A stretch of 64,000 nucleotides of DNA from Vermamoeba vermiformis (taxonomy: Eukaryota), in contig JBEWZL010000064.1 in NCBI GenBank assembly GCA_045837725.1, forward strand, positions 62,001 through 126,000, given 5' to 3'. This document shows positions 1 to 51,400 of this stretch, in pieces. Made by a program: the position numbers and the translations under genes. How positions within the stretch are numbered: position 1 is the first letter of the stretch; each line of letters starts with the position of its first letter. The notes under the pieces were generated by a model, which worked only from the letters and a program-made list of their open reading frames with translations, was not told where the DNA came from and did not search any database.

Positions 1-488
1 AGATCGGCTCATAAATAGTGCTACGCCTAGTTGTATGAACCATTGTGATGCAAGCACGAATAAATATACCACCTAAATAAAATAATTCAGGAAATTGCGA
101 GCGAGAGATCGATCTGGATGTCTGGAGCGATCTCTGGCGGTATTCCGCCTAAAAAATTCAAATAATTTTTATCTTGTAGTACACGTACCAGCCAAGCATA
201 ATACAGAGCGGATCCATCGGCTGTAGGCTTCGGCAGTAAATTTATGACAACGACCGCGACATATGTGAACGTCGCCAATAATACAAAATTATAATATAGA
301 GATATGTGGATCTCTAGGGTACTTCGCAGTTTAAATAATAAATATAATATAGAGAATAGGGTGAGCACGATAATAGCCGTTTCAAATACGGCCAGTCGAT
401 ATTGACCAATCTGCACTGTATACGAGACTATATGGCAGCACCCTATTGTATCATTCAATGACGTGCATGCGTCCTCGAGCTGAGGCAT
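1..488 (-). CDS. Multi-pass membrane protein, 5' part (runs off the left end); possibly 7TM/GPCR-like
   Basis: ATG 488, exon 1 to 189 with two hydrophobic helices, GTACGT donor at 188, TAG acceptor ~74, next exon reads VVYLFVLASQWFIQLGVALF. Confidence 0.6.
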
Positions 489-1036
489 TGATTTCCTTTT
501 GACAGACGAAGAAGAGTTAGATCGAATAAAATGTCAGGACAGGGGAATATTTTGAGTCTTATGGCGTTTACATATAAAATATTAGCTATTAATATTGTTA
601 CTTGATTTTTAAATTGATTAAATGAGAAACATTAACTCGGTTTTGAAATCTATTACGAAACATAATCAATAATTTGCATAATAATTATTCCCATTATTTT
701 AGCTGTTAAAATAATTTACTACATCGCATTATTATCGATAAAATTACTTACTATTGCTAATCTACAAAGCTTGTTTTTTAACGTTGAATATCGGCCATAA
801 AAATCAAAATATGCTACCTAAAGACACTCCACACGTGCAACTGTGTGCTATTGATCATTTGTCAAGCATAAGACAACATTGCTAAATTCGTTCTTCTTTT
901 CGAAATTTGGGCACGTGGCTTCAGAAGCTCCGAACATTCGAGTTTCAAAATTCGAGAACAGCTACCACAAATGCTACAAAATAACTAATAGCGAAAGCAT
1001 GATTTTAGTGCTTTGTTTTTATGTACATTTATCGAT

Positions 1037-17115: not shown

Positions 17116-19091
17116 ATGGAATGGACGTCATACACAGACACCGGACTTGAACCACGGTAAATAATTTATTTTATATTACATTATATAATAAATATATGCT
17201 ACGATATAGGGCTTCCACTTAAAGATTAATTCGATCGACGTCTGATCATAATTTTGTTTTTTGGGTAGGGCTTGGCATACCGCAAATACGATTGGAAATA
17301 AAGCTCTATTCTTTGGAGGTGCATCTTATTCACGACTTAGAACCTCAAAATGCTATAATGAAATTGTTGTCTATGATCCAGGTATTTGAAACTCCCATCT
17401 GTTTTTGGCTAGATACGGATAATAATACGCGTTCTTTCACTTGCATTTTATTACCGATTTTTATGGTTGTTTATTGACATTTGAACCTTCCAGAATTATT
17501 GACATTTTCGCCTATCACAACATCTGGTGACGTTCCACCGCCCCGTGCAAGCCACACTTCTTCACTGGTAAGTGCAATGTATTATGCAATTTTTATTCTA
17601 TATCCGTACAATTCAGAGGCGATTCTGTGGAAATTTCGTGTCTTTTTTCGTCGATCGAGCTCGAACACTTCACAGCCAATTGTAGCTAATTGACTATGAC
17701 AGTACCTATCCGATAAAATCTTCGTTCATGGTGGAGAACGACGAGATAATGGTGAATTACCCCGCTATCATCAAGATGTTTATACTTTCGATGCCAGTAA
17801 GTTACTTACTAAACACGTCTCGCTAGAATTCTCACTAAGTAATAATTACAGCTGAAATTCGGTGGCAAAGGCAATCAGTAAGAGGTACTCTGCCCGAGCG
17901 AGAATGTCATTCGGCCAGTGTCATTGACAACAAACGAATTTACATTTTTGGAGGCGCAACCTACGACGGCGCCTATCACTACTACGACGACACTACGGTC
18001 ATTGATACAGGTAAGCAACGATGTTGTCAAATAGTTTGTTTTATTTAGTAACACGTGATTCAGTCAGCATGCAAAGTATGAAAGTAGACGCGCGCGGTGA
18101 TAAGCCCGAGAGCCGTGCTGGGCATTCCGCGACAGTACTGCCCAATGGCAAGATATTTCTGTTCGGCGGTGAAGGTGTTGTGGACGGCTGCTATTTTAAC
18201 GACAGCTTCATGTTTGATCCAGGTACGCGGCACAACTAATGACACGATGCGAATTTGGTGGATTACTAACCCTATATTACTAGCCAATAACACTTGGAGT
18301 AAAGTTGCGACATCTGGTCGTATTCCACCTTCACGTGCAGGTCACTCGGCAGTGTTGATGGGGCACAAACTGTACATTTATGGAGGCTACAACAGCAACG
18401 GCACCAAGTTCTTTTACTTCTCGGACATGTACCGCTTAGATATTCGTAAGTAGCTTCGTTTTTCGTTAATCTCCTCTGGCTTCTTATGTACGAGTTGCGG
18501 GTACGTGAGCCTAACCGATTTTGCTTGTAGGATCAATGGAGTGGGAGAAACTAGACAACCTTATCGGCCCTTCACCCGTCGAAATGAGTTCACACGCAGC
18601 CACGGCGATTGACGAGAACAAAATGATCATTTTTGGTGGCACAAAGGACAACATGTTTTACAACAACGCCTTTGTTCTGGATACACGTACGCACCAACAT
18701 CACATCTAACACGTGTCTATTACTAAATTTATCTTATGCAGAAATCTCTTTGAAGAAGCTGTGCATGGCTCAGGTGGCAAAAAATCGTTCCTTGACAAAG
18801 ACGGTCAATCGCCAAAATATTTTGCCTTATGACCTCAAGGACGAGTTTGTACAATATTATGTCAAGTACTACAACTTGCCTAGTGACTGCAAGACTCGCG
18901 AGAGAAGCAACTCGTGCGGATCGAACAGCTCGATGAGCGAGATCAGCTGGATTTCTTCAGAAGACGAATCCATGGGCTTTGATTCGGATTCGGATATTTA
19001 TATGGAAGATATTCCTGGTAATTACAATGACCCTCTTGGCGATTTTTTTGAACACAAGCCGATCGAGGTAGAAGGACACTCGTGGTGGTAA
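17116..19091 (+). CDS. Kelch-repeat protein with C-terminal BC/cullin box (KLHDC3-like)
   Basis: Six kelch repeats (PPPRASH, RAGHSA..., IFGG/FGG/YGG) over 9 exons, then SLKKLCMAQV...LPYDLK. Confidence 0.8.
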
Positions 19092-19487: not shown

Positions 19488-22400
19488 ATGCAACACCAAG
19501 GAGAGCAACGAACTATCAAAACACTCGTTATAATTTTAATCCTAATTGAAATTGTGCTTGCATCTGTACAGCTCGAGACGAAATTGCAACTGGCATCCAA
19601 ACGTGCTTATTTTTCAACTGTACAAGCTGGCAACAAGATCTTTTTTATTGGAGGATACGAGCACAGCGACTACGTTGCATCAGATGTGATTGATGTTTTG
19701 GATTTGGCATCCAGCTCCTTTGAAACTCCGCTCAACTTGTCAACACCACGAGGTCGTATTTCGTCGATCGTAATTGGCCCGAAGATATACATGGTTGGTG
19801 GTATTTCTTACTCCTGTCTTCCCTTCACGTATTCAAGCGAGAACAACAACTTTTCTACAAGTGGCTTCACTTCCGGACCAACAGTACGACGACCCATTCG
19901 CATGGCTCTCCACGACTCCACTCTCACTGTCATTGGAGCTTATTCGGTTGATTTCATGAACACAACAACAAAACAATGGACTCACAACTAACAACTCACA
20001 CGTGTCATGTCACAAGTGTTTGACACGACAACTATTTCACACCACAACTCTGTATTCGTCGTTGGCGGCAAGAATGCGACATCTCAACAAGAACTGACGA
20101 GTGTGTGGGTGCTTGACTCGCCATCAAGTACGCCAGAAGAGTCTCATGACAAAGTTGCACCAGTCTCTTCTTCGATGTTCGTTGGTTCTTGGTTCGACGA
20201 AGACAACTCAGCAGTGGTGATTCAGTTCTCGAATCAATGCTTGGTGTATCACACATCATCACGGACATGGCTGCGAAGAGACACGAACAACAACTCGATC
20301 TCATCAGTGTCGTTCCAAAACAGCACAAAGGTGTTCTTCACAGATGGCTACTGGACAATCGATTGGCATCACATGAACGACACGTGGACATCACTCGATC
20401 AAATCAACATTGCATTCACAGTTGGTGATCAACTCGTGTTCTCATCAGGCCAACAAATGACCATCATGACAAACGATACCTCCGTTACTCAATCAGTCGA
20501 TATTGGTCCTCTTGCCTTGTCAATGCAAATGTCATCGTCACACTTCCTCCTAGTGAACACCAGTAGCTCCATGTTTGTCTACGACGCGTCTACAAAACAG
20601 TTGAATCCCGTCTATAGTGCTCTAAGATTCGTTCCCGTCAGCATTTTTCGAGGCAACAATTCACAAGTTTACGTCATTGGTGCACTTCAGGGCGCAACTT
20701 TGCAGTCCGTTTTCATCACTGTCCAACCAGATTCATCGTTTCAAACACTCGTGTCGACCTTATTTCCTCAAGTCCTGATTGGCAATAACTTCTTTAACCT
20801 AACCAACGGCACGTGGGCTGCAGCTGACTCTCCATATGATGTACGTTCATTCGATCAAACATTTCCGACGGCAATATGGACCCAACAAGGCGATGAATTT
20901 TACCTGATGCAAACTTCATCGTTCACCTCATCTCCCAATGCTCTCTCGCAGTACAACGCCGTCGACGTCTACAATTATGTTCGAGGCGAATGGGAGAGCT
21001 CTATTCCCATGACGGACATCCCTGTTTTGGTGAACAAGTACTTCCCAGTTGTGGAGTTTGATGGAGTGCTGCATGTATTTGTGAGGAATATCGTCTTTCA
21101 ACTGAATGCGACTGGAGATTGGAACAGAAAGTCTGTCGGCGCCTCGAATCTAGCAGCATCGCTAACACATCCGACTTACGTACCAGTCCCCGTAATCGAC
21201 AACACAGCCTACGTGCTGGATGCCGGAACCGGTTTACTGACCTCAACGCCGGACATGAGAGTACAGGCAATTTCAACCGGATTAGTGGGATTATCACAAC
21301 AATTGGTCAGCACGAAGACGCAAGTCATTCAATCAATCGTCGTAAACTCAAACTACAGCCTCATCGCCACTTATGATATCCCGAGCAACAGCTGGAGAGG
21401 CGTGCAATTTGTGCCTCCTCAGTCCATGGTCTCGATTGCTGTCTATGATGGCGTAGTGCTGGCTCTTGGCGATGACACGGAGTCACTTAGCTACTTAAAC
21501 GTTACCTCCGATCAATGGACCAGTGAACCCTTCGACAACGCACACGTGCCTGCTTCAATGTTCACACTTCAGTTGTCGAACTACAACAGAACAGTGTTGG
21601 TGATTGCAGGTGGATATCACAGAACAAGTCGACATTACACTGATGAAGTCAAGTTCATCACCATCGATATTGAATCATCACCACTTGAAGCTTCTCCATC
21701 GACAACTGTCACCACTCCTTTGTCACCACAACAAACAGATTCAAGTGCTTCCACCATTGTTATTGCAGTCGTTGTTCCAGTCGTGATCATTGCCGTTGCA
21801 GCAGTGGTTCTTGCAATACTGTTGGTGAGAAGAAAACGACAACGAAGAAGAACACAGTCAGCATCAACAACGATCGGATTGGAACAACAGTTCGGTGAGT
21901 GGTTCATTCCATTCAGTGACATTCACTTTGGCACTCAGCTTGGTCAAGGAGCGAACGGCCAAGTGTTCAAAGGCAAATGGAAGAACACTGATGTTGCGTT
22001 GAAAGTGAGCATGACACAAGCGAATCAAAGTGTCATCTCCGAACTGTCACTGATGATCAACATGCGACCTCATCCAAATGTCGTGCAACTCTTTGGATTT
22101 AGCGTGCATCCTGAAACGAACAGTGTTATATTGATCATTGAGTACTGCAACGGCGGATCGTTAGACAAGCAACTTATGGACAAGAACGCGTCAGAAATAC
22201 CCATCAATCAGAAGGCTTCAGTTGTTGCATGGCATCGCTCGTGGTGTCGTTCACTTGCACTCGAACAACATTGTGCATCGAGACTTGGCAGCGCGCAATG
22301 TGTTGTTGCATCAAGGAGAACCAAAACTGACAGACTTTGGCATGTCACGCATTGTGGATGATCAACAACAACGAGGCACAACCAAATCAGAACTTGGACC

Positions 22401-22760
22401 CATTCGATGGATGTCACCTGAGTCACTCGGCGGCAAACAGTACTCAACCAAGTCAGGCAAGTCTTCGAATAATATATTTACACAACTCAATCAGCTTCTA
22501 ACGCTTCGTTGCTTTCAGATGTGTGGTCATTTGGTATTCTCATGTTCGAAGTGCTTGCACAGCAAGAACCTCACCTTGATGAAGATCCAATCGAAGTTGG
22601 ACGCAAGATCAGAGACGAAGGACTCACACCTCACCTTCCATCATCGTTGGAGTGCTTGAGTGACTTCACATCGATCATGAATCAGTGTTGTACATTTGAT
22701 CCGAACTATCGTCCAAGTATCGAACAAGTCCTTCAAAAACTCGAGCAGATTCCTCTGTAG
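19488..22760 (+). pseudogene. Receptor tyrosine-kinase-like gene, copy 1, disrupted
   Basis: Colinear with copy 2 but TAA at 19989-19991 where copy 2 has GAA, and an extra G at 22214-22215 in the kinase domain; GC-AG intron 22457-22518. Confidence 0.75.
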
Positions 22761-23335
22761 GGCAACAATCGTCTTCATTCATTCGCACAGCGAAACTAAT
22801 TTATTTATAAAGAAGAAAACTAATAACGAAGCAAACGTAATTATAACGTAACGTGTACTCGCAATTAATAAGACATTGATAGCTGGTTCTTGAGTGCGTA
22901 TTGTTTGCATTTAAATTGCAAAATTTGCCTTCCACCTTTTAAACAGTACGCAGCAAGTCACCTCCACTACTTACCGAAATAAATGTTTTTACAATTAATC
23001 CGTGTCAAGCAACAGATAATCAACAAAAATCGGATAATGCAGTCTGAAAAAATCGGATCGGGTGGATGGGGAAAGGAAGGTAAGCTTCGAATAATTAAGC
23101 GTAACAAGTTACCTCGTTGCCACTTATTTTTTTTATTCTGACGGTCCCCATTTTAGCAATTGCGGACCTAAAAGCATGTAAAAAGACTGTGTTTTGCTTG
23201 ATGAACGTTGGCAAGACCAAAACCACGAGCCATCTTAAGACTTAAGTCCGGAGAGTATTATCCGGTGGTAAGATATTAATTTTTGCCAGCTGTTGTTGGG
23301 AATCTAATTTCGATTTTCAACAGAATGAATCAAAG

Positions 23336-26300
23336 ATGCAGAATAGCCCCGCAACGCGAAGATTCGCAATACTATTATTTATAATAGCTGTTTCCGAAAC
23401 AACGGTGGCAAATGTCCAGATCGAGAAGACGTTTCAACTGACATCCGATCGTGCATATTTCTCAACTGTGCAAGCTGGCAACAAGCTCTATTTTATTGGA
23501 GGATACGAGCACAGCGATTATGTCGCTTCCAATGTCATTGACGTATTTAATTTGCAAGATGGAACGCTAGAAAAGCCGCTAAATTTGTCAACACCTCGAG
23601 GCCACGTTTCGTCAATAGTTATCGGTCCGAGGATATACATGGTTGGTGGTATTTCTTACTCTTGCCTTCCTTTTGAGTATTCAAGCGAGAACAACAACTT
23701 CACGACAAACGGAATGACATCCGGACCAACAGTCCGACGACCCATTCGCATGGCTCTCCACGACTCCACACTCACTGTCATTGGAGCCTATTCTGTTGAT
23801 TTCATGAACACAACAACAAAACAATGGACTCACAACGAACAACTCACACGTGTCATGTCACAAGTGTTTGACACGACAACTATTTCACACCACAACTTTG
23901 TATTCGTCGTTGGCGGCAAGAATGCGACATCTCAACAAGAACTGACGAGTGTGTGGGTGCTTGACTCGCCATCAAGTGCGCCAGAAGAATCTCGCGACAA
24001 AGTTGCACCAGTCTCTTCTTCGATGTTCGTTGGGTCTTGGTTCGACGAAGACAACTCAGCAGCGGTGATTCAGTTCTCGAATCAATGCTTGGTGTATCAC
24101 ACCTCAACGCGAGCATGGCTGCAAAGAGACACGAACAACAACTCGATCTCATCAGTGTCGTTCCAAAACAGCACGATGGTGTTCTTCACAGATGGCTATT
24201 GGACAATCGATTGGCATCACATGAACGACGCGTGGACATCACTCGATCAAATCAATTTTGCATTCACAGTTGGTGATCAACTCGTGTTCTCGTCAGGCCA
24301 ACAAATGACCATCGTGACAAGCAATACCTCCGTGACTCAATCAGTCGATATTGGACCGATTGCACTGTCAATGTCAATGTCGTCATCAATATATGTGCTA
24401 GTGGACTCGAGTAGTGCGATCTTCATGTACCACGCCGACACCAAGGAGTTGATTCAAGTTGCTCCAAGTGTCGAAAACTTACAGCCTGTGAGCATATTTA
24501 GAGGCACCGCTTTCATTCACGTTATTCAGAGCCGGGTCACAAGTAGTCAAGAGCTACCACTGCTAATCACCCTCGATGCAAATGGAATAGTTCAATCTTG
24601 GAATATCACGCATACTCCGCTAGTACTGATCGACGACAACTTCTTCACGCTTGACCTCGGTGGATGGTTCTCGTCCACGGCACCAACTGATGTGCATCCA
24701 ATGGGCAGTGCCTTTTCTTCGCCATTCACTTGGACCCAACGAGGCAACCAGCTCTACGTCATGCAAATGCCCTTTTCCCTCAATATTCCTCCTCCTGCTG
24801 CCACTGGGTATACTGCTGTAGACGTGTTCAACTACGGGGAAGGTATCTGGGAGGACTCTATCCCTGGCGTACCGTCACCTGCAAACACTTTTTTACAAGT
24901 AGCTGCACTCGATGAAAGGCTTTGTGTCATTTCAAGAAATACTTTACTACAGTTGAATACCACCGGCGGATGGAACGTTGGGTCATTTGGAGACACAAGT
25001 GTAACGCAACCGCTGGTACATCCAACTTACGTGCCAATTCCTGTGATCAACAACACGGGATATTTCAGAGATACAGCAGATGGGTTTTATATCACCACAA
25101 CAGCTATGAACGTGCAGCACATTTCATCTTCTTCAAGATTGAACTCGCGACAAATTGTTAGCACCAACACTCAGGTTATCCTCTCGCTCACATTAAATGG
25201 GTACTACACGAACCTTGCAGCCTATAACATCACAAGCAACACCTGGATAGGCACACTTTTCGATACCCGACAAGCAATGCTGTCCATAGCGATGTACGAT
25301 GACGTGGTGCTCGCTCTTGGTGATGACGTGGGGTCCCTCAATTATTGGAACATCTATTTCGAACAATGGACGCGCGTGCCCTTCGACAACGCACACGTGC
25401 CTGCTTCAATGTTCACCCTTCAGTTGTCGAACTACAACAGAACAGTGTTGGCGATTGCAGGTGGATATCACAGAACAAGTGGACACTACACTGATGAAGT
25501 CAAGTTCATCACCATCGATATTGAATCATCACCACTTGAAGCCTCTCCATCGACAACTGTCACCACTCCTCTGTCACCACAACAAACAGATTCAAGCCCT
25601 ACTTCCACCGTTGTTATTGCAGTCGTTGTGCCAATCGTGATCGTTGCCGTTGCAGCAGTGGTTCTTGCAATACTGTTGGTGAGAAGAAAACGACAACGAA
25701 GAAGAATACAGTCAGCAGCAACAACGATTGGATTGGAACAACAGTTCGGTGAGTGGTTCGTTCCATTCAGTGACATTCACTTTGGCACTCAGCTCGGTCA
25801 AGGAGCGAACGGTCAAGTGTTCAAAGGCAAGTGGAAGAACACTGATGTTGCGTTGAAAGTGAGCATGACACAAGCGAATCAAAGTGTCATCTCCGAACTG
25901 TCGGTGATGATCAACATGCGACCTCATCCAAATGTCGTGCAACTCTTTGGCTTCAGTGTGCATCCTGAAACGAACAGTGTGATATTGATCATTGAGTACT
26001 GCAACGGCGGATCGTTAGACAAGCAATTGATGGACGAGAATGCACCAGAAATGCCCATCAATCAAAAGCTTCAGTTGTTGCAAGGCATCGCTCGCGGTGT
26101 CGTTCACTTGCACTCGAACAACATTGTGCATCGAGACTTGGCAGCACGCAACGTGTTGTTGCATCAAGGAGAACCAAAACTGACAGACTTTGGCATGTCA
26201 CGCATTGTGGACGATCAACAACAACGAGGCACAACCAAATCCGAACTTGGACCCATTCGATGGATGTCACCTGAGTCACTTGGCAGCAAACAGTACTCGA

Positions 26301-26603
26301 CCAAGTCAGGTTAGTTGTTACCTATAACCCTGTCAATATTGACTAACCAGTGCCTGTTCAGATGTGTGGTCGTTTGGTATTCTCATGTTCGAAGTGCTTG
26401 CACAACAAGAACCTCACCTTGATGAAGATCCAATCGAAGTTGGACGCAAGGTCAGAGACGAAGGACTCACACCTCAACTTCCATCATCGTTGGAGTGCTT
26501 GAGTGACTTCACATCGATCATGAATCAGTGTTGTGCATTTGAGCCGAACTATCGTCCGAGTATCGAACAAGTCCTTCAAAAACTCGAGCAGATTCCTCTG
26601 TAG
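23336..26603 (+). CDS. Single-pass receptor tyrosine-kinase-like protein with kelch-like ectodomain, copy 2
   Basis: Signal peptide, kelch-like motifs (KLYFIGG, LSTPRG, IYMVGG), S/T/P stalk, TM then RRKRQRRR, GQGANG, VALK, HRDLAARN, DFG, GPIRWMSPES; intron 26310-26361. Confidence 0.9.
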
Positions 26604-26685
26604 GGACAACAATCGTCTTCATTCATTCGCACAGCGAATCGCAATTTATTTATAAAGAAGAAAACTAACAACGTAGTGAACGAAA

Positions 26686-27602
26686 TTATTGTGGCGGTGG
26701 TACTGGGATATTTGTGGGAAGAGAAGTAGCTCCGGCACTCGCAGCACTGTTAGCAATGAGTGCATCCACATCGCAAGGGCACTGAGAGTAATAGTTTGTA
26801 GTCGGGTAGTAGTAGACGGTGACTTGAATGTTGGCAGGGAAGATGAATTCTAATTGCGGACCCGAGTTCCACGCCAGTACGCTGCGGAATGGTTGTGAAT
26901 TCAAATAGTTGCCCGCACTGTCAGCACGACTCCTCACAGTGCAGCTATTGTTCTTGAAAGTGCGGAATTCATCACGTTGCCCTTTGTAAAAAGGCTTTCT
27001 GTTCGAATAAAAGTCCGCTCTTTCGGTAGTAAAAGTGAAATCGCTCTCGTAAGTGCCATTGGTGTAGGTGCCTGATACAAAGATTAAGATGAGTATTGCT
27101 CAATATAAGACACATTATTATCCTTCCTTACCTAGAATAAATAGGGGTACCAAAGTAGCGTGTTGGACGGCAACCGACTCAACAAAGATCAAAGGATAGT
27201 CTACGTGTTGTCGGCCGTAAACACTGTACGACGCTCCTCCATTGCAATGATCGGTCAACGTGCCAGAAAGAATTGCCCATGCGTCGTTGAAAGCAGCAAT
27301 GGCTGTTTGCTTGTCAAACAACGATTTGAGGAAGCCAACAACTTACCATTAATACCTTGGTATGAGAAGAGATACAACTGAAAGGTGACGCACCCCGAGG
27401 TATCAGTGAGAACTAAAGATTGATTGTACGGGATGTACAGATTAGCCCCGTTTTCGAGGGCTATTCTCCAAGGAATAGTTTGGTTGAACAGCGTATTCGA
27501 TGGGCTTGAGCACTGCTCGTTATTAACCTCTTGGTTCGCAAAGCACTGTTGACACGCAACAATAACGAGGAACAAAAATGCTAGCATTTGAAAGGGCGTC
27601 AT
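26686..27602 (-). CDS. Secreted protein of unknown function (3 exons)
   Basis: Signal peptide MLAFLFLVIVACQQCFA; two GT-AG introns join the three ORF pieces in frame; several N-x-S/T sites. Confidence 0.7.
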
Positions 27603-27980
27603 GGTTGTGGATTAGGACGTCCTGCAATAATAATTGAATTTGCTTGGAGCAGTATCCTTTAAAGGATGCTAAAAATTCATTAAATATCAATGTACTATTT
27701 GTTGAACAAAAAGATATTGAAAGCAAGGATTAACAAGAGCAGATTTCTTGGATATGTTGCATTGTTATTACAACCACTTGCGTAATATGGTAACAAATAT
27801 CAGAACAACTCTTAAGCATACCATTTCGGACAAACAAAATTACCTCGAGAAATATTGGTACTACTAGAATGAATTTCCAAGTCAATCTGCCTCGCTTATT
27901 AAACGGTGCACTAAATAAAAGCTGCTCATTTTCTCGTATTTTTTTAATAGCGACTATTGTACAACAATTGTTTTGGCATT

Positions 27981-28760
27981 ATGAAGCTCGGTATTGTTCA
28001 ACTAGCAACGCTCGCCACATTATTTGTTCTCGGCCAATCTCGGCTGTGTCCCTCGCAACACTCGACCGACACAGTGAGCACGGTTGAGGTCGGCGAGTTG
28101 CTGGAATTTCCTAATACAGGGTACTTTTTCGTTGTTGACAATCGGCAACAAGATTGGTTATTGCTCATGGTCGAACAGAGTTTGTGGGTTTCAAGAGACG
28201 GCAAGTACTGCCCTGACTTACAACTCACACTAATTAGAATGGTAGATCCAATTCGTTCATATGCATTCTTGAGAGGATACCTTTATACACCGGAGCCAAA
28301 CCGCTTGATCTACTACTTCTACGCAGAAGGTCCAATCTCGGACTTCAGTATTCGTGGCAGTCCTGATTTCAAGTGGGCCACTCTCAAAAACATTCAGATT
28401 AACGGTACGACGATAAAATTGTTAGATTTGAAGTAATTTGACCACCTCTCAACAGGCACTAGCACCACGTACTCTCCGCCATTAGTCTTCACTGTCACTA
28501 TTCCTTACGCGGACTTCTGGAGTGATGAGCCGGCAGACGACATCTCCACGTCCAGATGGATCAACGAAGATCCCGATAGTGGATGCGTAACTGAAGCTCT
28601 CGATTCTGGCGGAAGAAATCGTCTGATCTCCAAGAGTTTCCCGATTTACTTCGACTTCAGCGACGGATTGCGTTTAGAATTCATCATACCACAAGGTGAA
28701 CCGAATGCATTCTACGTAGCATCCATTTCCGAGCGCTTGTACAAGAACTGCGGTTGTTAA
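27981..28760 (+). CDS. Secreted protein of unknown function, paralog of 26686-27602
   Basis: Signal peptide MKLGIVQLATLATLFVLG; GTACG intron ~28404-28456 joins an open final exon ending LYKNCGC*. Confidence 0.7.
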
Positions 28761-40288: not shown

Positions 40289-43207
40289 ATGGCATCACTT
40301 TTGAAGAGTATCGATGCTGCTCTTGAAGCAGCTGCTCAACGCGAGATGGACATGGAAGAGGAGGCCATGCGCAAGTATCTTGACGATCTCGAAGAGCAAG
40401 AGCGTCTCGAGCGTGAAATGAAAGAGCGTATTGCTCGTCGTAAAGCCGAGGCAGCTGCTAAGCGTGAGCGCGAAGAACAAGAGCAGATGGAAAAGTTCAA
40501 GCAAGAAGAAGAGGAGCGCGAACGTAATGAACGTGCCATGAAAGAGCGCATTGATAAGAGAAAGGCTGAACTCGCTGCAAAGCGTGAACAAGAGGAGCGT
40601 GAACAAATGGACAAGTTCCGTCAAGAAGAAGAAGAGCGTGAACGCGCTGAAAAGTCTATGCGTGAACGCATTGAGAAGAGAAAGGCCGAGCTTGCCTCAA
40701 AGAAAGAGCAACAAGAACAAGAACAAATGGACTTGTTCAAGCAAGAAGAAGAAGAGCGTGCAAAGATCGAGAAGTCCATGAAGGAGCGCATCGAGAGGAG
40801 AAAGGCTGAGCTGTCCTCTAAGAAAGAACTCGATGAGAACTCTCAAATGGAGATCTTCAAGCAAGAAGAGGAAGAACGTGCTCGTGCTGAAAAGGCCATG
40901 AAAGAGCGCATTGCTCAACGCAAGGCCGAACTTGCCAACAAGAAGGAACAACAAGAACGCGAGCAAATGGAGCTCTTCAAGCAAGAAGAAGAGGAACGTG
41001 AACGCGCTGAACGTTCTATGAAAGAGCGCATTGAACGCAGAAAGGCTGAGCTTGCTGCTCGTAAAGAGAGACAAGAACAGGAACAAATGGAAATGTTCAA
41101 GCAAGAAGAAGAGGAACGCAATCGCGCCGAAAGATCCATGAAGGAGCGCATCGCTCAACGCAAGGCCGAACTTGCCAACAAGAAGGAACAGCAAGAGCGT
41201 GAACAGATGGAGATGTTCAAGCAAGAAGAAGAGGAGCGTGAACGCGCTGAGAAGGCCATGAAGGAGCGCATCGCTCAACGCAAGGCTGAACTTGCCAACA
41301 AGAAGGAACAACAAGAGAAGGAACAAATGGACTTGTTCCGTCAGGAAGAGGAAGAGCGTGCTCGTGCTGAGAAGGCCATGAAGGAGCGTATTGCCCAACG
41401 CAAGGCTGAGTTGCAAGCCAAGAAAGAACAGGAAGAGCGCGAACAAATGGAGCTCTTTAGACAAGAAGAGGAGGAACGCGCCAAGATCGAGAAGTCCATG
41501 AAAGAACGCATCGAAAAGAGAAAGGCTGAGCTCTCTGCCAAGAAGGAACTTGATGAGAACTCTCAAATGGAGATCTTCAAGCAAGAAGAGGAAGAACGTG
41601 CTCGTGCTGAAAAGGCCATGAAAGAACGCATTGCTCAACGCAAGGCCGAACTTGCTAACAAGAAGGAACAACAAGAGAAGGAGCAAATGGAATTGTTCCG
41701 TCAAGAAGAAGAGGAACGTGAACGCGCTGAAAAGTCTATGCGCGAAAGAATTGAACGCAGAAAGGCTGAGCTTGCTGCTAAGAAAGAGCAACAAGAGAAG
41801 GAGCAAATGGACTTGTTCCGCCAAGAAGAAGAAGAACGTTCCCGCGCCGAAAGAGCCATGAAGGAGCGCATCGCTCAACGAAAGGCTGAGTTGCAAGCCA
41901 AGAAAGAACAGGAAGAGCGTGAGCAAATGGAGCTCTTCAGACAAGAAGAGGAGGAACGCAACCGTTCTGAAAAGGCCATGAAGGAGCGCATTGAGAAGAG
42001 AAAGGCCGAGCTTGCTGCCAAGCGCGAGCAAGAAGAGCGCGATCAAATGGACTTATTCAAGCAAGAAGAAGAAGAGCGTGCCAAGATCGAGAAGTCCATG
42101 AAAGAACGCATCGAAAAGAGAAAGGCCGAGCTCTCTGCCAAGAAGGAGCTTGATGAGAAGTCTCAAATGGAGATCTTCAGACAAGAGGAAGAGGAACGTG
42201 CTCGTGCTGAAAAGGCCATGAAAGAACGCATCGCTCAACGCAAAGCTGAATTGCAAGCCAAGAAAGAAGCTGAAGAGCGCGAACAAATGGAAAAGTTCCG
42301 TCGCGAAGAAGATGAAGCTAGTAACTCAGAAAAGGCCATGCGCGAAAGAATCGAAAAGCGACGTGCTGAACTCGCCGCTAAGAAAGAACAAGAGGAGCGC
42401 GAGCAGATGGAGAAGTTCCGTCAAGAGGAAGAAGAGCGCGAACGCAATGAACGTGCCATGAAGGAGCGCATTGCTCAACGCAAGGCTGAATTGCAAGCTA
42501 AGAAGGAGCAAGAAGAACAAGAGCAAATGAACAGATTCAAGCAAGAGGAAGAAGAGCGCGAACGCAATGAACGCGCCATGAAGGAGCGCATTGAGAAGCG
42601 AAAGGCCGAGCTTGCTGCCAAGAAGGAAGCCGAAGAGCGTGAACAAATGAACAAGTTCCGCCAAGAGGAAGAAGAACGCGAGAGGACTGAAAAGGCCATG
42701 CGCGAACGTATTGCCCAACGCAAAGCTGAACTCGCCGCCAAGAAGGAGGCCGAAGAGCGTGCTCAGATGGAAAAGTTCAAGTCTGAAGAAGATGAGGCCT
42801 CTCGTACTGAACGTGAAATGCGTGAGCGCATCGCTCAACGCAAGGCTGAGTTGCAAGCCAAGAAAGAGGCTGAAGAACGTGCTCAAATGGAGAAGTTCCG
42901 TCAAGAAGAGGCTGAGCGCGAGAAGACTGACAAGGCCATGAAAGAGCGCATTGAAAAGAGAAAGGCCGAGCTCGCTGCCAAGAAGGAAGCCGAAGAGCGC
43001 GAACAAATGGAGAGGTACAAGCGCGAAGAAGAAGAGAAGAATAAGGCTGAAGCTTCGCTCAAAGAGAAGATCGCCAAAAAGAAGGAAGAATTGGCTGCTA
43101 AGAAACAACGCGAGCGTGAAGCTTTGATGGAGCGATACAGAGCACGCATGAATAAGACCGACAAGCAAGCTGAAGATAATTTGAGCAACTTGTTGAAGAA
43201 GCAGTAA
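40289..43207 (+). CDS. 972-aa E/R/K-rich helical protein made of 40-aa tandem repeats
   Basis: Uninterrupted ORF; unit QMEKFKQEEEERERNERAMKERIDKRKAELAAKREQEERE; strong AAG/CGT/CGC/GCC/GCT codon bias like myosin II. Confidence 0.9.
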   Translation: MASLLKSIDAALEAAAQREMDMEEEAMRKYLDDLEEQERLEREMKERIARRKAEAAAKREREEQEQMEKFKQEEEERERNERAMKERIDKRKAELAAKREQEEREQMDKFRQEEEERERAEKSMRERIEKRKAELASKKEQQEQEQMDLFKQEEEERAKIEKSMKERIERRKAELSSKKELDENSQMEIFKQEEEERARAEKAMKERIAQRKAELANKKEQQEREQMELFKQEEEERERAERSMKERIERRKAELAARKERQEQEQMEMFKQEEEERNRAERSMKERIAQRKAELANKKEQQEREQMEMFKQEEEERERAEKAMKERIAQRKAELANKKEQQEKEQMDLFRQEEEERARAEKAMKERIAQRKAELQAKKEQEEREQMELFRQEEEERAKIEKSMKERIEKRKAELSAKKELDENSQMEIFKQEEEERARAEKAMKERIAQRKAELANKKEQQEKEQMELFRQEEEERERAEKSMRERIERRKAELAAKKEQQEKEQMDLFRQEEEERSRAERAMKERIAQRKAELQAKKEQEEREQMELFRQEEEERNRSEKAMKERIEKRKAELAAKREQEERDQMDLFKQEEEERAKIEKSMKERIEKRKAELSAKKELDEKSQMEIFRQEEEERARAEKAMKERIAQRKAELQAKKEAEEREQMEKFRREEDEASNSEKAMRERIEKRRAELAAKKEQEEREQMEKFRQEEEERERNERAMKERIAQRKAELQAKKEQEEQEQMNRFKQEEEERERNERAMKERIEKRKAELAAKKEAEEREQMNKFRQEEEERERTEKAMRERIAQRKAELAAKKEAEERAQMEKFKSEEDEASRTEREMRERIAQRKAELQAKKEAEERAQMEKFRQEEAEREKTDKAMKERIEKRKAELAAKKEAEEREQMERYKREEEEKNKAEASLKEKIAKKKEELAAKKQREREALMERYRARMNKTDKQAEDNLSNLLKKQ
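40360..43140 (+). repeat. 120-bp coding tandem repeat, 22 well-conserved plus 2 degenerate units
   Basis: CARATG recurs every 120 nt from ~40484 to ~43004 without indels. Confidence 0.95.
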
Positions 43208-45463: not shown

Positions 45464-48400
45464 TTATTTGCCGAACAAAGCAGAGATGGTGCGGGCCTTC
45501 TCTTGCAAGTCTTCACGTTCCAAAGCAAGACGGGAAGCCTCGTTACGAGCACGTTCGACTTCGTCCTTCAAGCCACGGATTTCGTCCTTGAGCTTGTTAA
45601 CCTCAAGTTCAGCCTTGCGCTTTTCGGCTTCAGCGTTGGCAGCACGATCTTGCTCCTCAACGAGTCTCTTCTTGGCGGTCTTAAGCTCGCCTTCAACTCT
45701 CTTCTTGGAGTCGGCGTCCTTGGCACCACCAGACTTGAGCAATTGAAGCTGCTTACGGGCATCAGCGGCTTCAGTCTCGGCACGTCGGCGAGCCTTCTCG
45801 AGCTTGGCGATTTGGTTGTTGAAGGTAGCAACCTTGGTGTTGAGGTCCTCAAAGTTGGCTTCAGCTTGACGCTTGGAGCGTTCAGCGTTGGCACGGCTGA
45901 TGCGCTCTTCCTCCAACAAGTCGCGGAGCTCAATGGACTCACGCTCGGCTTGTCTCTTGGCCTCCTCGGTGGATTCGCGGTTGCTAATCTCACGATCGAG
46001 AGCCTTGCGCATATCCTCGAGGGCGGATTGGTGAGTGCGCTTGAAGTTCTCCAACTCAGCCTTGCGGTCCTCGGCGTCATCAAGAGCGTCCTTCAAGTCC
46101 TCAACGGTCAAAGTGAGCTCACGGATGGTTTGCTCAGCCTTGGCCTTGACGCGTTCAGCATCATCGGCAACGTCGCGGTACTCCTCGAGTTGAACCTCGA
46201 TGGCCTTGCGGGACTTCTCAGCAGCAACGCGCAACTTGTGTTCTTGCTCGATCTGCTCAGTAAGGGCGTCAGCCTCTTCTTGGAACTTCCAGGCGAGTCT
46301 CTCTTGCTCGTCCTTCTCAAGAGCGAGTTGTTCGAGCTTCTCCTTGAGCAAGCGCAATTCCTTGGCAGCCTTCTTGCGCTCCTTCTCGGCCTTGGACTTG
46401 CCCTTGTCACCACCGTCGAGTTGAGTCTTCAAGGTCTTAAGATCTTGCTCGAACTTCTTGGCGTTACGATCGGCTTCAGTGCGAGCCTTCTTCTCGTTGT
46501 CAAGAGCACGCTTGGTGTCGGCGAGTTCCTTCTCGATCTCACGCTTGATCTCCTCGAATCTGTCACGAGCCTCAGATTCAGAGTCCAATTGCTTGCGCAA
46601 CTCAGAGATCTCAAGATCCTTGCGGTGCTTGATCTCTTCTAAGTCAGCACGAGCGTCCTCGGCCTCTTCGAGTTGATCACGGAGGTCTTGGAGTTCGACT
46701 TCAAGAGCACGTTGAGTCTTGCTGAAACCATCGCGAGCAGAGGCGCTTTCGTCGACCATATCCTTCAAGTCAGCGACCTCAGCTTCGAGAGCCTTGACGC
46801 GCTTCTCGGCGTTGACACGAGCAGCACGTTCGCGCTCAATTTGGTCCTTGTAGTCCTCAATCTCGTGTTGGATGCGACGAGCCTCTTCGTCAGAGAGCTT
46901 GCCACCCTTGCCTTGGTTGGCCTTGGCTTCCTTGAGCTCCTTCTCGAGCTTCTTGAGCTTCTTGTCAGCGGCAGCCTTCTCCTTTTGGGCGTTCTCCAAG
47001 CGACCAGCCAAGTCGTCAAGGTCAGATTGCAACTTCTTGCTGTTCTTGTCCTTGTTGGCTCTTTCACGAGCTTCGTCGTCCAATTGGCGGTGAGCATCCT
47101 CCAACTCGCGTTCGAGAGCGCGACGGGCCTCTTCGGCTCTTTCGCGGTTCTCACGTTCGCGGTCAGCAGCGCGGCGAGCCTCATCGGCTTCCATCTCAGC
47201 GCGGCGACGGAGTTCTTCAGCCTCTTCCAAAGCTTCAGAAGCACCGGCGTTGTCACGGAGGTCACGCAACTCGTCTTCCAAGTCGCGGACTTGCTTCTCC
47301 AAGCGAGAGCGGGCAGAGCCGTCCTCGTTGGCACGCTCAGACAACTCTTCGAGTTCACCCTCAAGTTGTTTGCGGATGCGATCGAAGTTGGCGTTCTTGT
47401 TTTGCAAGTCAGCGTTTTGGGCTTGGAGTTGATCGAGTTGGTCTTGGAGACGACGCAAGAGACCCTCTTGTTGGTCGACGGTGGCAGATCTGTCGGCAAC
47501 AGCCTTCTTGAGGTCCTTGAGTTCACCTTCGGCCTTCTTGCGAGCCTTGTCGGCCTTGCCAAGTTCCTTTTGGGCCTCATCAAGACGGCCAGCCAAGTCG
47601 TCGAGGTCGGCCTTCATCTTGTTGTTTTGACGTTGGGCGTCCTTCAACTTGTTGCCATCCTTCTCGTAGGCACCGCGCAACTCATCAAGTTCAGATTCCA
47701 ACTTCTTGATGGCTTGCTCAGCACGGCTGCGAGCATCGGCTTGGTCGTCGAGTTGACGTCTGAGTTGGTCAGCCTCGGACTCGTACTTGGCCTTGACGGC
47801 AGCAAGTTCCTTGTTGTCGTTGAGGTGAGCATCCATCTCGTCTCTGAGATCTTCCAACTCGTCGTGGAGGGACTTGGCCTTCTTGTCGGCGGCGGCACGG
47901 TTGGCCTTCTCCTCCTCGAGGGCGTCTTCGACCTCATTCAAACGGCTTTCAAGATCCTTGCGAACCTTGTCAGCAGCAGCGCGGGCCTTAGCCTCAGCTT
48001 CGAGATCGGCTTGGGCGGCATCGAGATCAGCAGCCAAACGACGAGCCTCCTTGTCCAAGCTTTGGGCGCGGGCGGATTCTTCGTCCAATTGGCGTTGAGC
48101 AGTCTTCAAGTCGGCTTCAAGCTTGCCCAAGCTCTTGCTGTTGCCTTGCAAGCCCTTCTCGGCGTTAGCCAAGTCGGCACGAGCATCTTCCAAGTCTTCC
48201 TCGAGTTGGCGGCGGAGCTTCTCGAGTTGTTGGTTCTTGCGTTGTTCCTCATCGAATCTTTCTTGGAGACTCTTGAGTTCAGCAGCCAATTGAGCCTTTT
48301 CACGCTCCAACTTTTGGATCTTGGCGTTGGCTTCATCGAGTTGACGCTTCAAGTCTTCAACAAGAGAGTCCAACTTGGTCTTGGCAGAGTAGAGTTGTTC

Positions 48401-51400
48401 GCGTTCCTTGCTTTCGGCTTCCAATTGAGCGTGAACATCTTCCAAGTCTTCTTGGGCTTGCTTCAATTTGCGAGCCAAGTCAACCTTGTCCTTGCCAGCG
48501 CTGTCCAAACCGCTAGAAGCAGAGTCGAGAGCGGATTGCAAGCTCTTCTTCTCCTTCTCCAAGTTAGCCTTGACCTTGTTGAGGGCATCAAGCTCGTCGC
48601 GGAGCTTGTTCATGTTGGCAGTCAAGTTCTTGATGCTATCCTCAGCAGAAGCACGGGATTGAGATTGGTCATCAAGAGATCTCTTGGTGTTGGCCAACTC
48701 GTTTTCAAGACCCTTCAAAGCCTTCTCGAGTTGAGTGCGGTTCTTGTTCTCTTCGTTGAACTTGGTGGTCAAGTCATCAAGTTCCTTTTGCAACTTGGCG
48801 CGTTGCTTCATCAAAGAGTCCTTAGCAGCGCTCTCGCTGTCCTTGGTGTTCAAGGCCTCGTCGAGATCGTGCTCGGCTTGAGCCTTAGCCTTGCGCAATT
48901 GTTCGATGATATTCTCATCTTCCTCCACGCGGGTACGCAAGTCCTTGAGGTCTTCGTCGAGTCTCTTCTTCTCAGAGAGAAGCTTGTTCTTCTCGGCGAC
49001 TTCACGATCAAGATCTTGAGCCAAAGCTCTGGCCTTGGAGTCGAAGTTAGCCTTAGCTTGTTCAGTGTTGCCCAAAAGGGAGAGCTTGTCCTTAAGCTCG
49101 TCTTCCAAGTCGGTAACACGTCGGTTGAGAGCCTTGAGTTGCTCCTCGGCTTGGTCCTTGCCGCCTTGCAATTCAGAAGCCTTTTGCTTGGTGGCGAACA
49201 AGTTCTTCTCCAACTCGTCGATCTTGCCCTTCAAGTTGTCGATGTTCTTGGTCAAACCGTTCTTGCTATCAAGCTCGGCCTTGAGTTGCTCTTGCAACTT
49301 CTTGATTTCTTCCTCACGCTTGGAGATTTCCTCCTCGAAGTTGCGGTGCTTGAGTAAAGGTCTAGCCTTAGTGAACAATCTGTACCAGGGCCAGTTCTTG
49401 AACTCCAACCAAGCACGGATGTTGCGTTGGATAACTTGAGCAGCGACAGACTTCTCTCTCTTCTTCTTGTAAGCCTTACGGGCGACGAAACCACGAGCAG
49501 CGGCTTGGATGGCAGGGATCAATTCACCAACCTTGCGCTCACGAGCTTCTTCAATAGCAGCCAATTGACCGGCCTTGAAGAAGATCTTGGTGAGACCCAT
49601 ACGGTATTGCTCGGGGTCGACGACCTTTTGGCTGACCATCAAATCAATCAAAGATTGAGTGGCGGCCTTAGAGTCGGCAGCACGACGAGGAACGTTGCTG
49701 GAGAGAATGTAGTATCTCTTCAAGAAGTCAGGGTAGAGAACTCTGTTGGGCCAACCCTTACGAGAGATTCTGATACCTTCCAAGACACCGTTGCAACGGA
49801 GTTGTTCAAGGACGATGCGGTCCTCGACCTTGCCGGGTTGTTGGGCGTGGTTGGGCAAGATGCAACGAATGAAGTGAGGGCTGGTGGAACCCAAAGTCTC
49901 CATCAAGTCGTTCAATTGCTCACGGTATTGAGCAGCGACAGTGACGAAAGAAGCACCCTTAGGGCCCTTGGAGGCGCGAGAGGATGAGGAAGAGCCAGCA
50001 GGCAGGTCCTTGCTCAAAGAGTACTCAGAGAACCATTGGCTCAAGTACTTGTCCTTAGCCTCAATGATCGAGGTTTCGAGATCGAGGGCCAAGGGGTCCT
50101 TGTTCTTCTCCAACCAGAGGGTGGTGTCGTATTCGACTTCACCGGCATAGTGTTGAACAGAGAAGTTGGTTTCCTTGCCGAGTTGGGGCTTGCGGAACTT
50201 GGGGTGTCTGCCTTGGTGGTTTTCGTTCAACTTGGTGAGGAAAGATTGATCGGTAGCCTTGGGGAAGACGGATTCTTCGTCCAACAAGATGAGGATACCC
50301 TTGGGTCTCTTCTCGATCAAATCGATAGTGGCCTGAGAGTCCATACCGAAGTCAATGAATTGCCAATCGATCTTCTCTCTCTTGTATTCCTCTTGTTCGA
50401 GGGTGAACATGTGGTGGTTGAAGAATTGTTGCAACTTCTCGTTGGTGAAGTTAATGCACAATTGTTCGAAGCTGTTGTTCTTGAAGATTTCGAAACCGGC
50501 AATATCCAAAATACCAATGAAGTTATCCTTGGGGACGACTTGGAGGGTGGAGTTGAGCTTCTCGACGACCCACAAGAACATACGACCGTAGAGGGCCTTG
50601 CAGAGAGCGTCACGAGAGGCACGAGCCTTGTCGAGGTTGAGGGTGGTTTGGACGAATTCCTTGTCTTTACCGACACGGATACGAGGACGCAACAAACCGT
50701 CTTCGAGTTTCTTGGGCTCAACCTTGAGCATTTCAGCGGCGGCTTCGAGTTCAACGCGATCCTTGAGCGAGCAAGCATCAGCACCTTCGGCTTGGAAGGG
50801 CAAGTTACCCATGTGAAGGATGGCGGAGATGACACGCCACATGTGGTCACGTTCGTCGGCATTGAAACCAAGAACTTCCAAGGCAGCAAGAGTGGCCTCG
50901 AATTCCTTGGCGTCATCCATACCGTTGACGGTGGTGCAGCCAGAGTTGTTCAAGAAGTTGTAGTCAGAGGCAGTGGTGAGCTTGTACTTGGCCTTGTCAG
51001 CGCTGGACAAACCAGTAAGGAGTTGGTAGAAGATGTGGAAGCTACGCTCTCCTTGACCTTGAGAGACGACACGAGACTTCTCGAGCAAGTAGACGACGAT
51101 CGAAGCACCAGAGATGAAACCGGATTTGTCGAAGGTGATCTTGATGAATTTACCGAAACGAGAAGAGTTGTTGTTCTTGTTGGTCTTGGCGTTACCAAGA
51201 GCTTCCAAGAGAGGGTTGGCTTGGAGCAATTGCTTCTCCAATTGACCCTCAGCACCAGATCGACCGGCAATGGAAGCCAAGTATTGAATAACCTTCTTGG
51301 TGTTTTCGGTCTTACCAGCACCAGACTCACCACTAAAGAAAAGATTTGTGAGTTATAATTTTCTCAACAGGAGGCAAAAAGATTTTTCCAAATCTAGATT

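Follow-up and report, generated by a model that had tools for sequence, protein, structure and literature searches.

How two neighbouring genes can be about 95% alike over long stretches and hardly alignable in between is the question raised by a locus of Vermamoeba vermiformis, in which two predicted receptor kinase genes lie head to tail on the + strand, at 19488-22760 (gene 1, copy 1) and 23336-26603 (gene 2, copy 2). The locus belongs to a stretch of 64,000 nucleotides (nt) from the NCBI GenBank assembly GCA_045837725.1 (contig JBEWZL010000064.1, positions 62,001 to 126,000 of the forward strand), which is called here the window and to which all coordinates refer. An earlier note on this DNA had described the pair as mosaics, in which gene conversion keeps the signalling part alike and a recognition module is kept diverse or swapped. 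The block-wise comparison of the two copies reveals mosaics whose parts fall into at least three age classes, and this pattern is attributed, at a rough probability of 0.65, to non-allelic gene conversion or recombination that recurs among the members of a multigene family and that the central blades of the extracellular propeller region escape.

Block-wise identity and silent divergence

The blocks are given below in the coordinates of copy 1, with identities counted over the columns of the copy 1 versus copy 2 alignment (UTR, untranslated region; aa, amino acid position).

5' flank: 67/199 identical (34%)
Codons 1-25: 34/75 identical (45%)
19563..19871, + strand (partner 23411-23719): block N, 241/309 (78%), patchy, of intermediate divergence
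19872..20506, + strand (partner 23720-24354): block A, 606/635 (95.4%), young, ectodomain aa ~131-335
20507..21527, + strand (partner 24355-25378): block V, 574/1042 columns (55%) with 39 gap columns, old
21528..22456, + strand (partner 25379-26309): block B, 887/932 (95.2%), young, comprising the last blade, stalk, membrane helix and kinase N-lobe
Introns, copy 1 versus copy 2: 24/63 columns identical (38%)
22519..22760: exon 2, 235/242 (97.1%)
22761..22835, + strand (partner 26604-26680): start of the 3'UTR (first 75 nt), 69/77 columns (90%)
Beyond the first 75 nt of the 3'UTR: 30/72 (42%), where the similarity ends

The right boundary of block V is abrupt, with 53 differences in 21381-21527 (147 nt) and 5 in 21528-21700 (173 nt), and the only two occurrences in the window of the motif CCCTTCGACAAC, at which the earlier note had placed a sharp boundary, are at 21528 and 25379 (0 expected by chance); the boundary is where it was said to be. 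The left one (about 20490-20507) is nearly as sharp, with 29 differences in 19886-20486 and 34 in 20507-20598. The coordinates proposed for the near-identical blocks were right within about 10 nt, but their description as almost base-identical overstates the likeness of blocks that are 95% identical. The diverged central block, with a protein identity of 44% over aa ~340-681 (about eight propeller blades), was correctly recognised, and the motifs WTQ.G, Y.AVDV.NY and HPTYVP.PVI.NT said to be common to both copies were all found in both translations, as was the difference between the copies in the signal-peptide region. Beside block V, the intron forms a second unalignable island, and the first 130 codons constitute a patchy third age class.

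The silent sites of the same alignment separate the blocks by age. Fourfold-degenerate sites, counted in codons with the first two bases agreeing, differ at 9/93 in block A, at 16/169 in block B to the end of the protein (aa 682-1071), at 19/45 in block N and, at saturation, at 53/71 in block V; the difference between V and the flanking A and B (25/262) gives a Fisher p = 7e-27, and that between N and the same flanks p = 4e-7. The Nei-Gojobori estimates of synonymous divergence (dS) and of its ratio to the nonsynonymous one (dN/dS) are as follows.

Block A: dS 0.12, dN/dS 0.24
Ectodomain part of block B: dS 0.07, dN/dS 0.21
Kinase: dS 0.14, dN/dS 0.15
Block N: dS 0.96, dN/dS 0.24
Block V: dS about 3 (saturated), dN/dS 0.16

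Within block N, dS ranges from 0.3 to >2 in 40-codon windows. The GC content of third codon positions (GC3) is 0.51/0.53 in A, 0.53/0.51 in V and 0.49/0.52 in the kinase, and is lower in N and B; selection on codon usage is excluded as the cause because all the blocks belong to the same transcript and A, V and the kinase have similar GC3 values. Since fourfold sites differ at about 10% and at about 75% in blocks of a single transcript, the pattern cannot be due to protein-level selection alone either. The non-coding sequence fits, with the start of the 3'UTR 90% alike and the intron and both outer flanks at the random level. Thus, the young class, with a silent divergence of about 0.1, comprises blocks A and B, exon 2 and the first 75 nt of the 3'UTR, the intermediate patchy class comprises the first 130 codons, and the saturated or unalignable class is made up of the central eight blades and the intron. 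The earlier note had held that a uniform synonymous divergence along the gene would speak against separate block histories; what was found is a range from about 0.1 to saturation.

The encoded receptors and their family

The two genes were modelled from their open reading frames (ORFs), the Pfam matches and their mutual alignment.

19488..22456, + strand: gene 1 exon 1, with signal peptide, propeller ectodomain, membrane helix and the first ~180 kinase residues (from ORFs, Pfam and the alignment with gene 2)
22457..22518, + strand: gene 1 intron, 62 nt, GC-AG, unalignable with the gene 2 intron, the frame being restored across it
22519..22760, + strand: gene 1 exon 2, kinase C-terminal lobe, TAG stop at 22758-22760
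23336..26309, + strand: gene 2 exon 1, an open frame with Kelch motifs at aa 39-122 and the kinase from aa 814 (25775)
26310..26361, + strand: gene 2 intron, 52 nt, GT-AG, with a CTAAC branch-like site
26362..26603, + strand: gene 2 exon 2, TAG stop at 26601-26603

Splicing of gene 2 gives ...STKSDVWSFG..., through which the kinase domain continues, and yields a protein of 1071 aa with a membrane helix at about aa 759-782 (25610-25681). No third copy was found in the window, either by tblastn with gene 2 or by the family profile in six frames at E <= 1. The window's version of gene 1 has a TAA at 19989-19991 and, near 22211-22214, one base too many. In contigs of two DNA runs sharing one species label (X1 and X2), position 19989 is G (depth 201/201 and 899/899, respectively), one base is left out at 22214 in the X2 contigs (374/374), and the contig over 19989 represents copy 1, not copy 2, by 20/23 diagnostic positions. 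A pseudogene status of copy 1, considered on account of the TAA and the additional base, was rejected in view of these intact letters; because the stop and the frameshift are absent from the independent DNA contigs, errors of assembly or differences between strains are the probable origin of the two lesions, and gene 1 itself is probably intact. The RNA runs X15 and X17 of the same species label contributed 1 and 0 reads, which is no test of expression. Of the 24 variant letters in the read contigs, 11 equal the letter of the other copy at that position, which could reflect a conversion polymorphism between strains, or a mixing of paralogs in de Bruijn contigs or in assembly polishing.

Both translations correspond, by sequence and model, to predicted type I receptor kinases consisting of a signal peptide, an N-glycosylated ectodomain of ~16 Kelch-like blades, one membrane helix and a kinase. 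The N-terminus is hydrophobic in both translations and signal-peptide-like by inspection, NxS/T sites number 12-16 in the ectodomain and 1-2 in the cytoplasmic part, and the ectodomain holds only 2-3 cysteines. In gene 2, the Pfam families Kelch_6 (38.6 bits, cut-off 25.3), Kelch_2 (28.0, cut-off 21.3) and Kelch_1 (25.4, cut-off 20.1) all match aa 39-122; no Pfam matches were found in the later blades of the window's two genes, and such matches are present in relatives, e.g., P0146 at aa 608-740. The AlphaFold (AF2) model, built with 27 family sequences, contains ~65 strands between aa 25 and 729 (~16 blades) at a predicted local distance difference test score (pLDDT) of mostly 84-97, followed by a helix at aa 767-807 and the basic RRKRQRRR. 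The Foldseek matches are led by tandem propellers, namely Utp21, Pwp2, IFT-A and, from Bacteroides, an extracellular sensor domain; the TM-scores are low, at 0.13-0.22. In the VIA comparison, the galactose oxidase propeller (Z 23.4, root-mean-square deviation (rmsd) 3.1, 302 aligned) and G-beta (Z 23.1, rmsd 2.7, 284 aligned) were found, as expected of four-stranded blades closing into a ring, and seven-blade propellers at Z about 23 align across residues ~23 to ~730, so that the N-terminal strand and the last blade would share one ring. On the blade map, block A is the five blades before V (blades 3-7), V is about eight consecutive blades, and block B opens with the last blade.

The VIA range of 23..730 had prompted the idea that block V is a complete nested propeller, which was rejected, as the block modelled alone shows no single-ring closure. 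Folded alone, it reaches a pLDDT of 88.5 and a predicted template modelling score (pTM) of 0.64, propellers match only its residues ~150-347 (the KLHL7 Kelch domain at Z 13.2, rmsd 3.5, 186 aligned, 151-347), and the whole-length structural rows have an rmsd of 12-21 Å. The earlier note's view of the variable block as a recognition module fails to this extent, since the block is not self-contained and makes no single propeller by itself.

The kinase begins with a Pfam PK_Tyr_Ser-Thr match from aa 814 (151.7 bits), and its motifs are intact in translation, including the glycine loop, the VALK lysine, HRDLAARN, DFG and PIRWMSPE. The catalytic loop HRDLAARN and the P+1 loop PIRWMSPE are of the kind typical of tyrosine kinases. 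Among solved structures, the closest are EGFR (1.3e-30), a Src/Abl ancestor (4.6e-28) and BTK (about 1e-25), with B-Raf, of the tyrosine-kinase-like (TKL) group, close at 2e-24; judged by these sequence matches, the catalytic core looks most like tyrosine kinases (TK) or TKL kinases.

The relatives of the pair come from metagenome or contaminant contigs. A full-length search gave 29 matches, 10 of them with matching ectodomains (41-53% identity) and all of them on such contigs, and an exhaustive ectodomain search gave 833 matches at E <= 1e-3 and 15 at E <= 1e-30; the build of Kelch plus kinase with about 1000 residues is common to 10 of the 18 ectodomain relatives scanned. The search with the kinase region found 109 proteins at E <= 1e-40, among which 41 are 60-81% identical and 37/41 of these have Kelch domains. 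The gene-caller products of the relatives all stop just past the same KS-G, so the position of the intron is common to the family. A single-protein scan of metagenome contigs found no related DNA loci, and alignment scans found one related locus each in metagenome and genome contigs (L001 and L002), each a single copy with no tandem partner within its short contig. In the Protein Atlas, only generic Kelch clusters were matched, with a best score of 0.88. A second tier (P0201-P0267), with kinases 37-52% identical, includes shorter Kelch forms, leucine-rich repeats (P0223), legume lectin plus epidermal growth factor (EGF)-like domains (P0231) and the P-domain (P0212, P0217, P0225); this ectodomain variety, as annotated in the sequences, suggests a wide receptor-kinase radiation in this protist group.

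The mosaic recurs in relatives that come from other organisms. For the 10 closest relatives with data, which may or may not be orthologs, block A is 93% identical within the window pair versus 56-65% to the relatives, the kinase 96% versus 71-81%, and block V 43% versus 20-38%. The pair P0005/P0006 is 78% identical in N, 94% in A, 41% in V and 97% in the kinase; P0179/P0180 are 99% alike in the kinase, 48% in A and 31% in V, and, taken together with P0030/P0184, such pairs have kinases 98-99% alike on ectodomains 31-66% alike. P0001 and P0002 have identical ectodomains and kinases that are only 78% alike. The nearest neighbour of P0004 shifts from P0003 in N (95%) to P0001/2 in A (99%) and to P0002 in the kinase (100%), although these may be strains rather than paralogs. 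Among the 820 pairs of the 41 sequences, 10 have A at 85% or more, and in 9/10 of them V is below A. The breakpoints fall at family-conserved motifs (around PVSIFR, VDVYNY and PFDN) in three independent pairs, and aa ~385-496 are variable in all three pairs examined (core ~385-510). Ancient V-block lineages common to several organisms were looked for and not seen, copy 1 V and copy 2 V being closest to each other (43% vs <= 38%).

Further members of the family may be present in the read data. Added up across the kinase segments, the depth of the contigs in X1 and X2 reaches about 4-7x that of the flanks, a depth that is not a copy number, and contigs leave the window sequence in the kinase region at 22078, 22324, 22428, 22514, 25789 and 25827; both observations are suggestive only, and would fit many paralogs with near-identical kinase pieces.

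Readings of the mosaic pattern

The reading preferred here supposes that members of the family have repeatedly undergone non-allelic gene conversion or recombination with one another, in tracts that would start and end in the family-conserved motifs. The exchange would keep the kinase, stalk, membrane helix, last blade and blades 3-7 alike within a genome; the central blades, the intron and parts of the 5' end would escape it, as stretches that are too diverged, or in which diversity is favoured, would drop out of the exchange. The paralogs may thereby couple different extracellular ligands, which the central blades would bind, to one and the same kinase output, and a role in the recognition of prey, pathogens or self, as proposed in the earlier note, is a pure inference. 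The claim that conversion homogenises the signalling part remains the best explanation, with the mosaic recurring in relatives, but in its narrow form it was not upheld, as ~200 ectodomain residues (aa 131-335) and the last blade are homogenised too.

Several findings weigh against this reading. The window holds two copies only, and it gives neither donor, tract nor direction of conversion at the locus. The intron of 52-62 nt is unalignable between exons that are 95-97% alike, and a usual conversion tract, a few hundred bases long, should often take in an intron of this length. A GC3 excess, as a sign of GC-biased conversion, was looked for in the homogenised blocks and not found. The relatives, coming as they do from metagenome or contaminant contigs, could represent strains or alleles rather than paralogs, and contigs of this kind may be chimeric. 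Under a 31-letter rule, none of the listed short-read contigs spans the boundary of a block (the pieces end 16-30 nt past it), and the phasing of the blocks therefore rests on the assembly of the window; copy 2 block A is, moreover, thinly covered, at a depth of 0 and 24 in X2 and of 15 and 59 in X1. The per-block dN/dS proposed as a check in the earlier note did bring out an unequal silent divergence among the blocks, but block V, expected to be the part with favoured diversity, stays below 1, at 0.16 with dS saturated, which is weak evidence either way and leaves diversifying selection without support.

The strongest competitor, considerably less probable and yet a possibility to be taken seriously, is a recent tandem duplication followed by import, in which V, the 5' parts and the intron of one copy were overwritten from a distant third paralog as a cassette swap. 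Young flanks around old inserts fit it equally well, and P0004, whose ectodomain differs from those of P0001/P0002 only in two short patches (reference aa ~385-496 and ~597-630) and is 99-100% identical to them in the rest, looks like the product of a short-tract import. At least three separate imports would, however, be required (5' patches, V and intron). The depth over both V blocks in X1/X2, which again is not a copy number, is like that of the single-copy flanks and gives no hint of a near-identical donor, and the V blocks of the two copies remain each other's closest. Import also leaves unexplained the kinases that are 96-99% alike on ectodomains 26-55% alike (P0179/P0180, P0009/P0030 and P0009/P0184); because near-identical kinases on diverged ectodomains occur family-wide, homogenisation is favoured over import.

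The intron calls for a separate consideration within the preferred reading of recurrent conversion. The change of identity falls exactly at the splice sites, from exons 95-97% alike to an intron 38% alike, the donors differ (GC in gene 1, GT in gene 2), and the loose contig end at 22514 is a departure from the window at the 3' end of the intron, pointing to a third intron variant from another paralog. The escape of the intron may be an effect of a heterology barrier, or it may come from a spliced template. The latter, i.e., an exon-precise homogenisation from spliced RNA or complementary DNA (RNA-templated gene conversion), which would presuppose the same pattern throughout the family, is held to be improbable; if true, RNA-templated conversion would maintain a shared kinase module across a diversified repertoire of amoebal recognition receptors.

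An assembly artefact, in which one sequence was copied or polished onto two loci or the haplotypes of one locus were laid in tandem, is given very little credence. It could draw on the stop and frameshift of copy 1, which are absent from independent contigs and point to local errors or another strain, on the 11/24 variant letters that equal those of the other copy, and on the little X2 contig cover over copy 2 block A. Against it, the copies differ at 29 positions in A, 45 in B and 7 in exon 2, 81 in all across the alike blocks, and are thus not collapsed, which disposes of the doubt raised in the earlier note that identical blocks might be collapsed-assembly artefacts. An independent 557-nt contig reproduces copy 1 block A at 20/23 diagnostic positions, and the depth of copy 1 block A, at about 1.5x the flank, is that expected from two near-identical copies, which is suggestive only; the two copies show no relationship in their outer flanks and in the spacer (34% and 42%), so haplotigs are excluded, and the mosaic is also seen in unrelated assemblies. 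Equally implausible is a single old duplication of uniform age, with stronger purifying selection on the alike blocks and a fast central block, possibly under positive selection, for although the central block is the least and the kinase the most conserved across organisms, the silent fourfold sites differ eight-fold between the blocks of one transcript, the start of the 3'UTR is 90% alike beside an intron at the random level, and the within-genome identity lies far above the between-organism one in A and the kinase and hardly so in V.

Known receptor systems and neighbouring genes

The propeller receptor tyrosine kinases (RTKs) of animals, such as Sevenless/ROS1 and, with the Sema propeller, MET/RON and the plexins, are alike in type I topology, a propeller ectodomain and a cytoplasmic kinase with a tyrosine-type catalytic loop, and Foldseek ranks the ectodomain of Sevenless (9bfp_A) 38th among its matches (E 1.7e-14). 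The present proteins differ from them in having Kelch-like blades, not YWTD or Sema ones, in the lack of fibronectin, EGF and cysteine-rich modules, and in their amoebal, not animal, host. In Amoebozoa, the available passages of the literature describe the Entamoeba TMK family, 7 predicted Acanthamoeba transmembrane tyrosine kinases and 3 Physarum receptor-like tyrosine kinases (PMC4053784, PMC4758236, PMC10463195, PMC2211552), and a role in phagocytic recognition is reported there for Entamoeba PATMK; these are likewise single-pass proteins with TK- or TKL-like catalytic domains in amoebae. The word 'kelch' has 0 occurrences in each of PMC4053784, PMC4758236 and PMC10463195, supplements being outside the scope of this count, and no Kelch double-propeller ectodomain is described in these texts. 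For holozoan protists, Suga et al. 2014 (PMC4342544) list a 'Kelch motif' in a figure legend among the domains of annotated tyrosine kinases, and in their table the number of group A TKs is 0 in each of Acanthamoeba, Dictyostelium and Naegleria. The lineage-specific radiations of RTKs described there, joining a conserved kinase to varied ectodomains, resemble the present family, but they concern group A tyrosine kinases of Holozoa, and the passages available of that paper contain no analysis of mosaics or conversion. In the literature searched, which did not cover supplements and subscription journals, neither a Kelch-ectodomain receptor kinase family of amoebae nor the mosaic evolution of one is described.

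As to the evolutionary pattern, a tandem receptor-kinase cluster of Arabidopsis (PMC3136440) serves as a comparison example. The present case differs from the protocadherin, SRK and plant clusters in belonging to another protein family and a unicellular host, in the homogenisation of part of the ectodomain too, and in the escape of the intron. In the clustered protocadherins, Brassica SRK/SLG and tandem plant receptor-kinase clusters, conversion keeps the constant or signalling parts alike while the ectodomain parts that determine specificity are diverged. The pattern is, accordingly, well known in plant and animal receptor clusters, and what the locus adds is a clear-cut instance from a new lineage and family; the principle itself is not new.

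Free-living amoebae have to distinguish among prey, pathogens and kin, and little is known of their surface receptors. The sizeable family described here, seen almost only in metagenome and transcriptome sequences, combines a Kelch-type tandem-propeller ectodomain with a tyrosine-kinase-like domain and evolves by the exchange of parts, with a near-constant kinase and scaffold and with central blades that differ between neighbours. From the sequence comparison, aa ~345-680 (core ~385-510) are likely the first place to look for ligand specificity, and the mosaic supplies a natural set of chimeras for testing.

The surroundings of the pair contain further reading frames. Upstream of gene 1, an ORF at 18097-18453 (+ strand) has a stretch of Kelch-like GG motifs and stands outside the receptor family in the profile scan at E <= 1. 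Just 3' of gene 2, two small ORFs at 27255-27602 (- strand) and 27957-28436 (+ strand) have hydrophobic, signal-peptide-like N-termini and may encode secreted proteins. Farther along, at 40289-43207 (+ strand), an ORF of 972 aa repeats a 120-nt (40-aa) unit about 21 times in tandem; it is extremely rich in E, K, R and A, has no Pfam match and shows a strong AT and GC skew, and its product is probably a coiled-coil repeat protein. The window also encodes a Vps18 homolog, and at 59502-63592 (- strand) several ORFs with Piezo domains (THU, anchor, cap) are pieces of an intron-bearing gene for a Piezo-type channel. At 45464-51280 (- strand), a myosin II heavy chain with motor, IQ and coiled-coil tail is encoded in a single uninterrupted frame of 1938 aa, which points to an intron-poor genome; its best named relatives are those of Balamuthia (53%), Pelomyxa (47%) and animals (37-51%), and the best solved structure is Dictyostelium myosin II.

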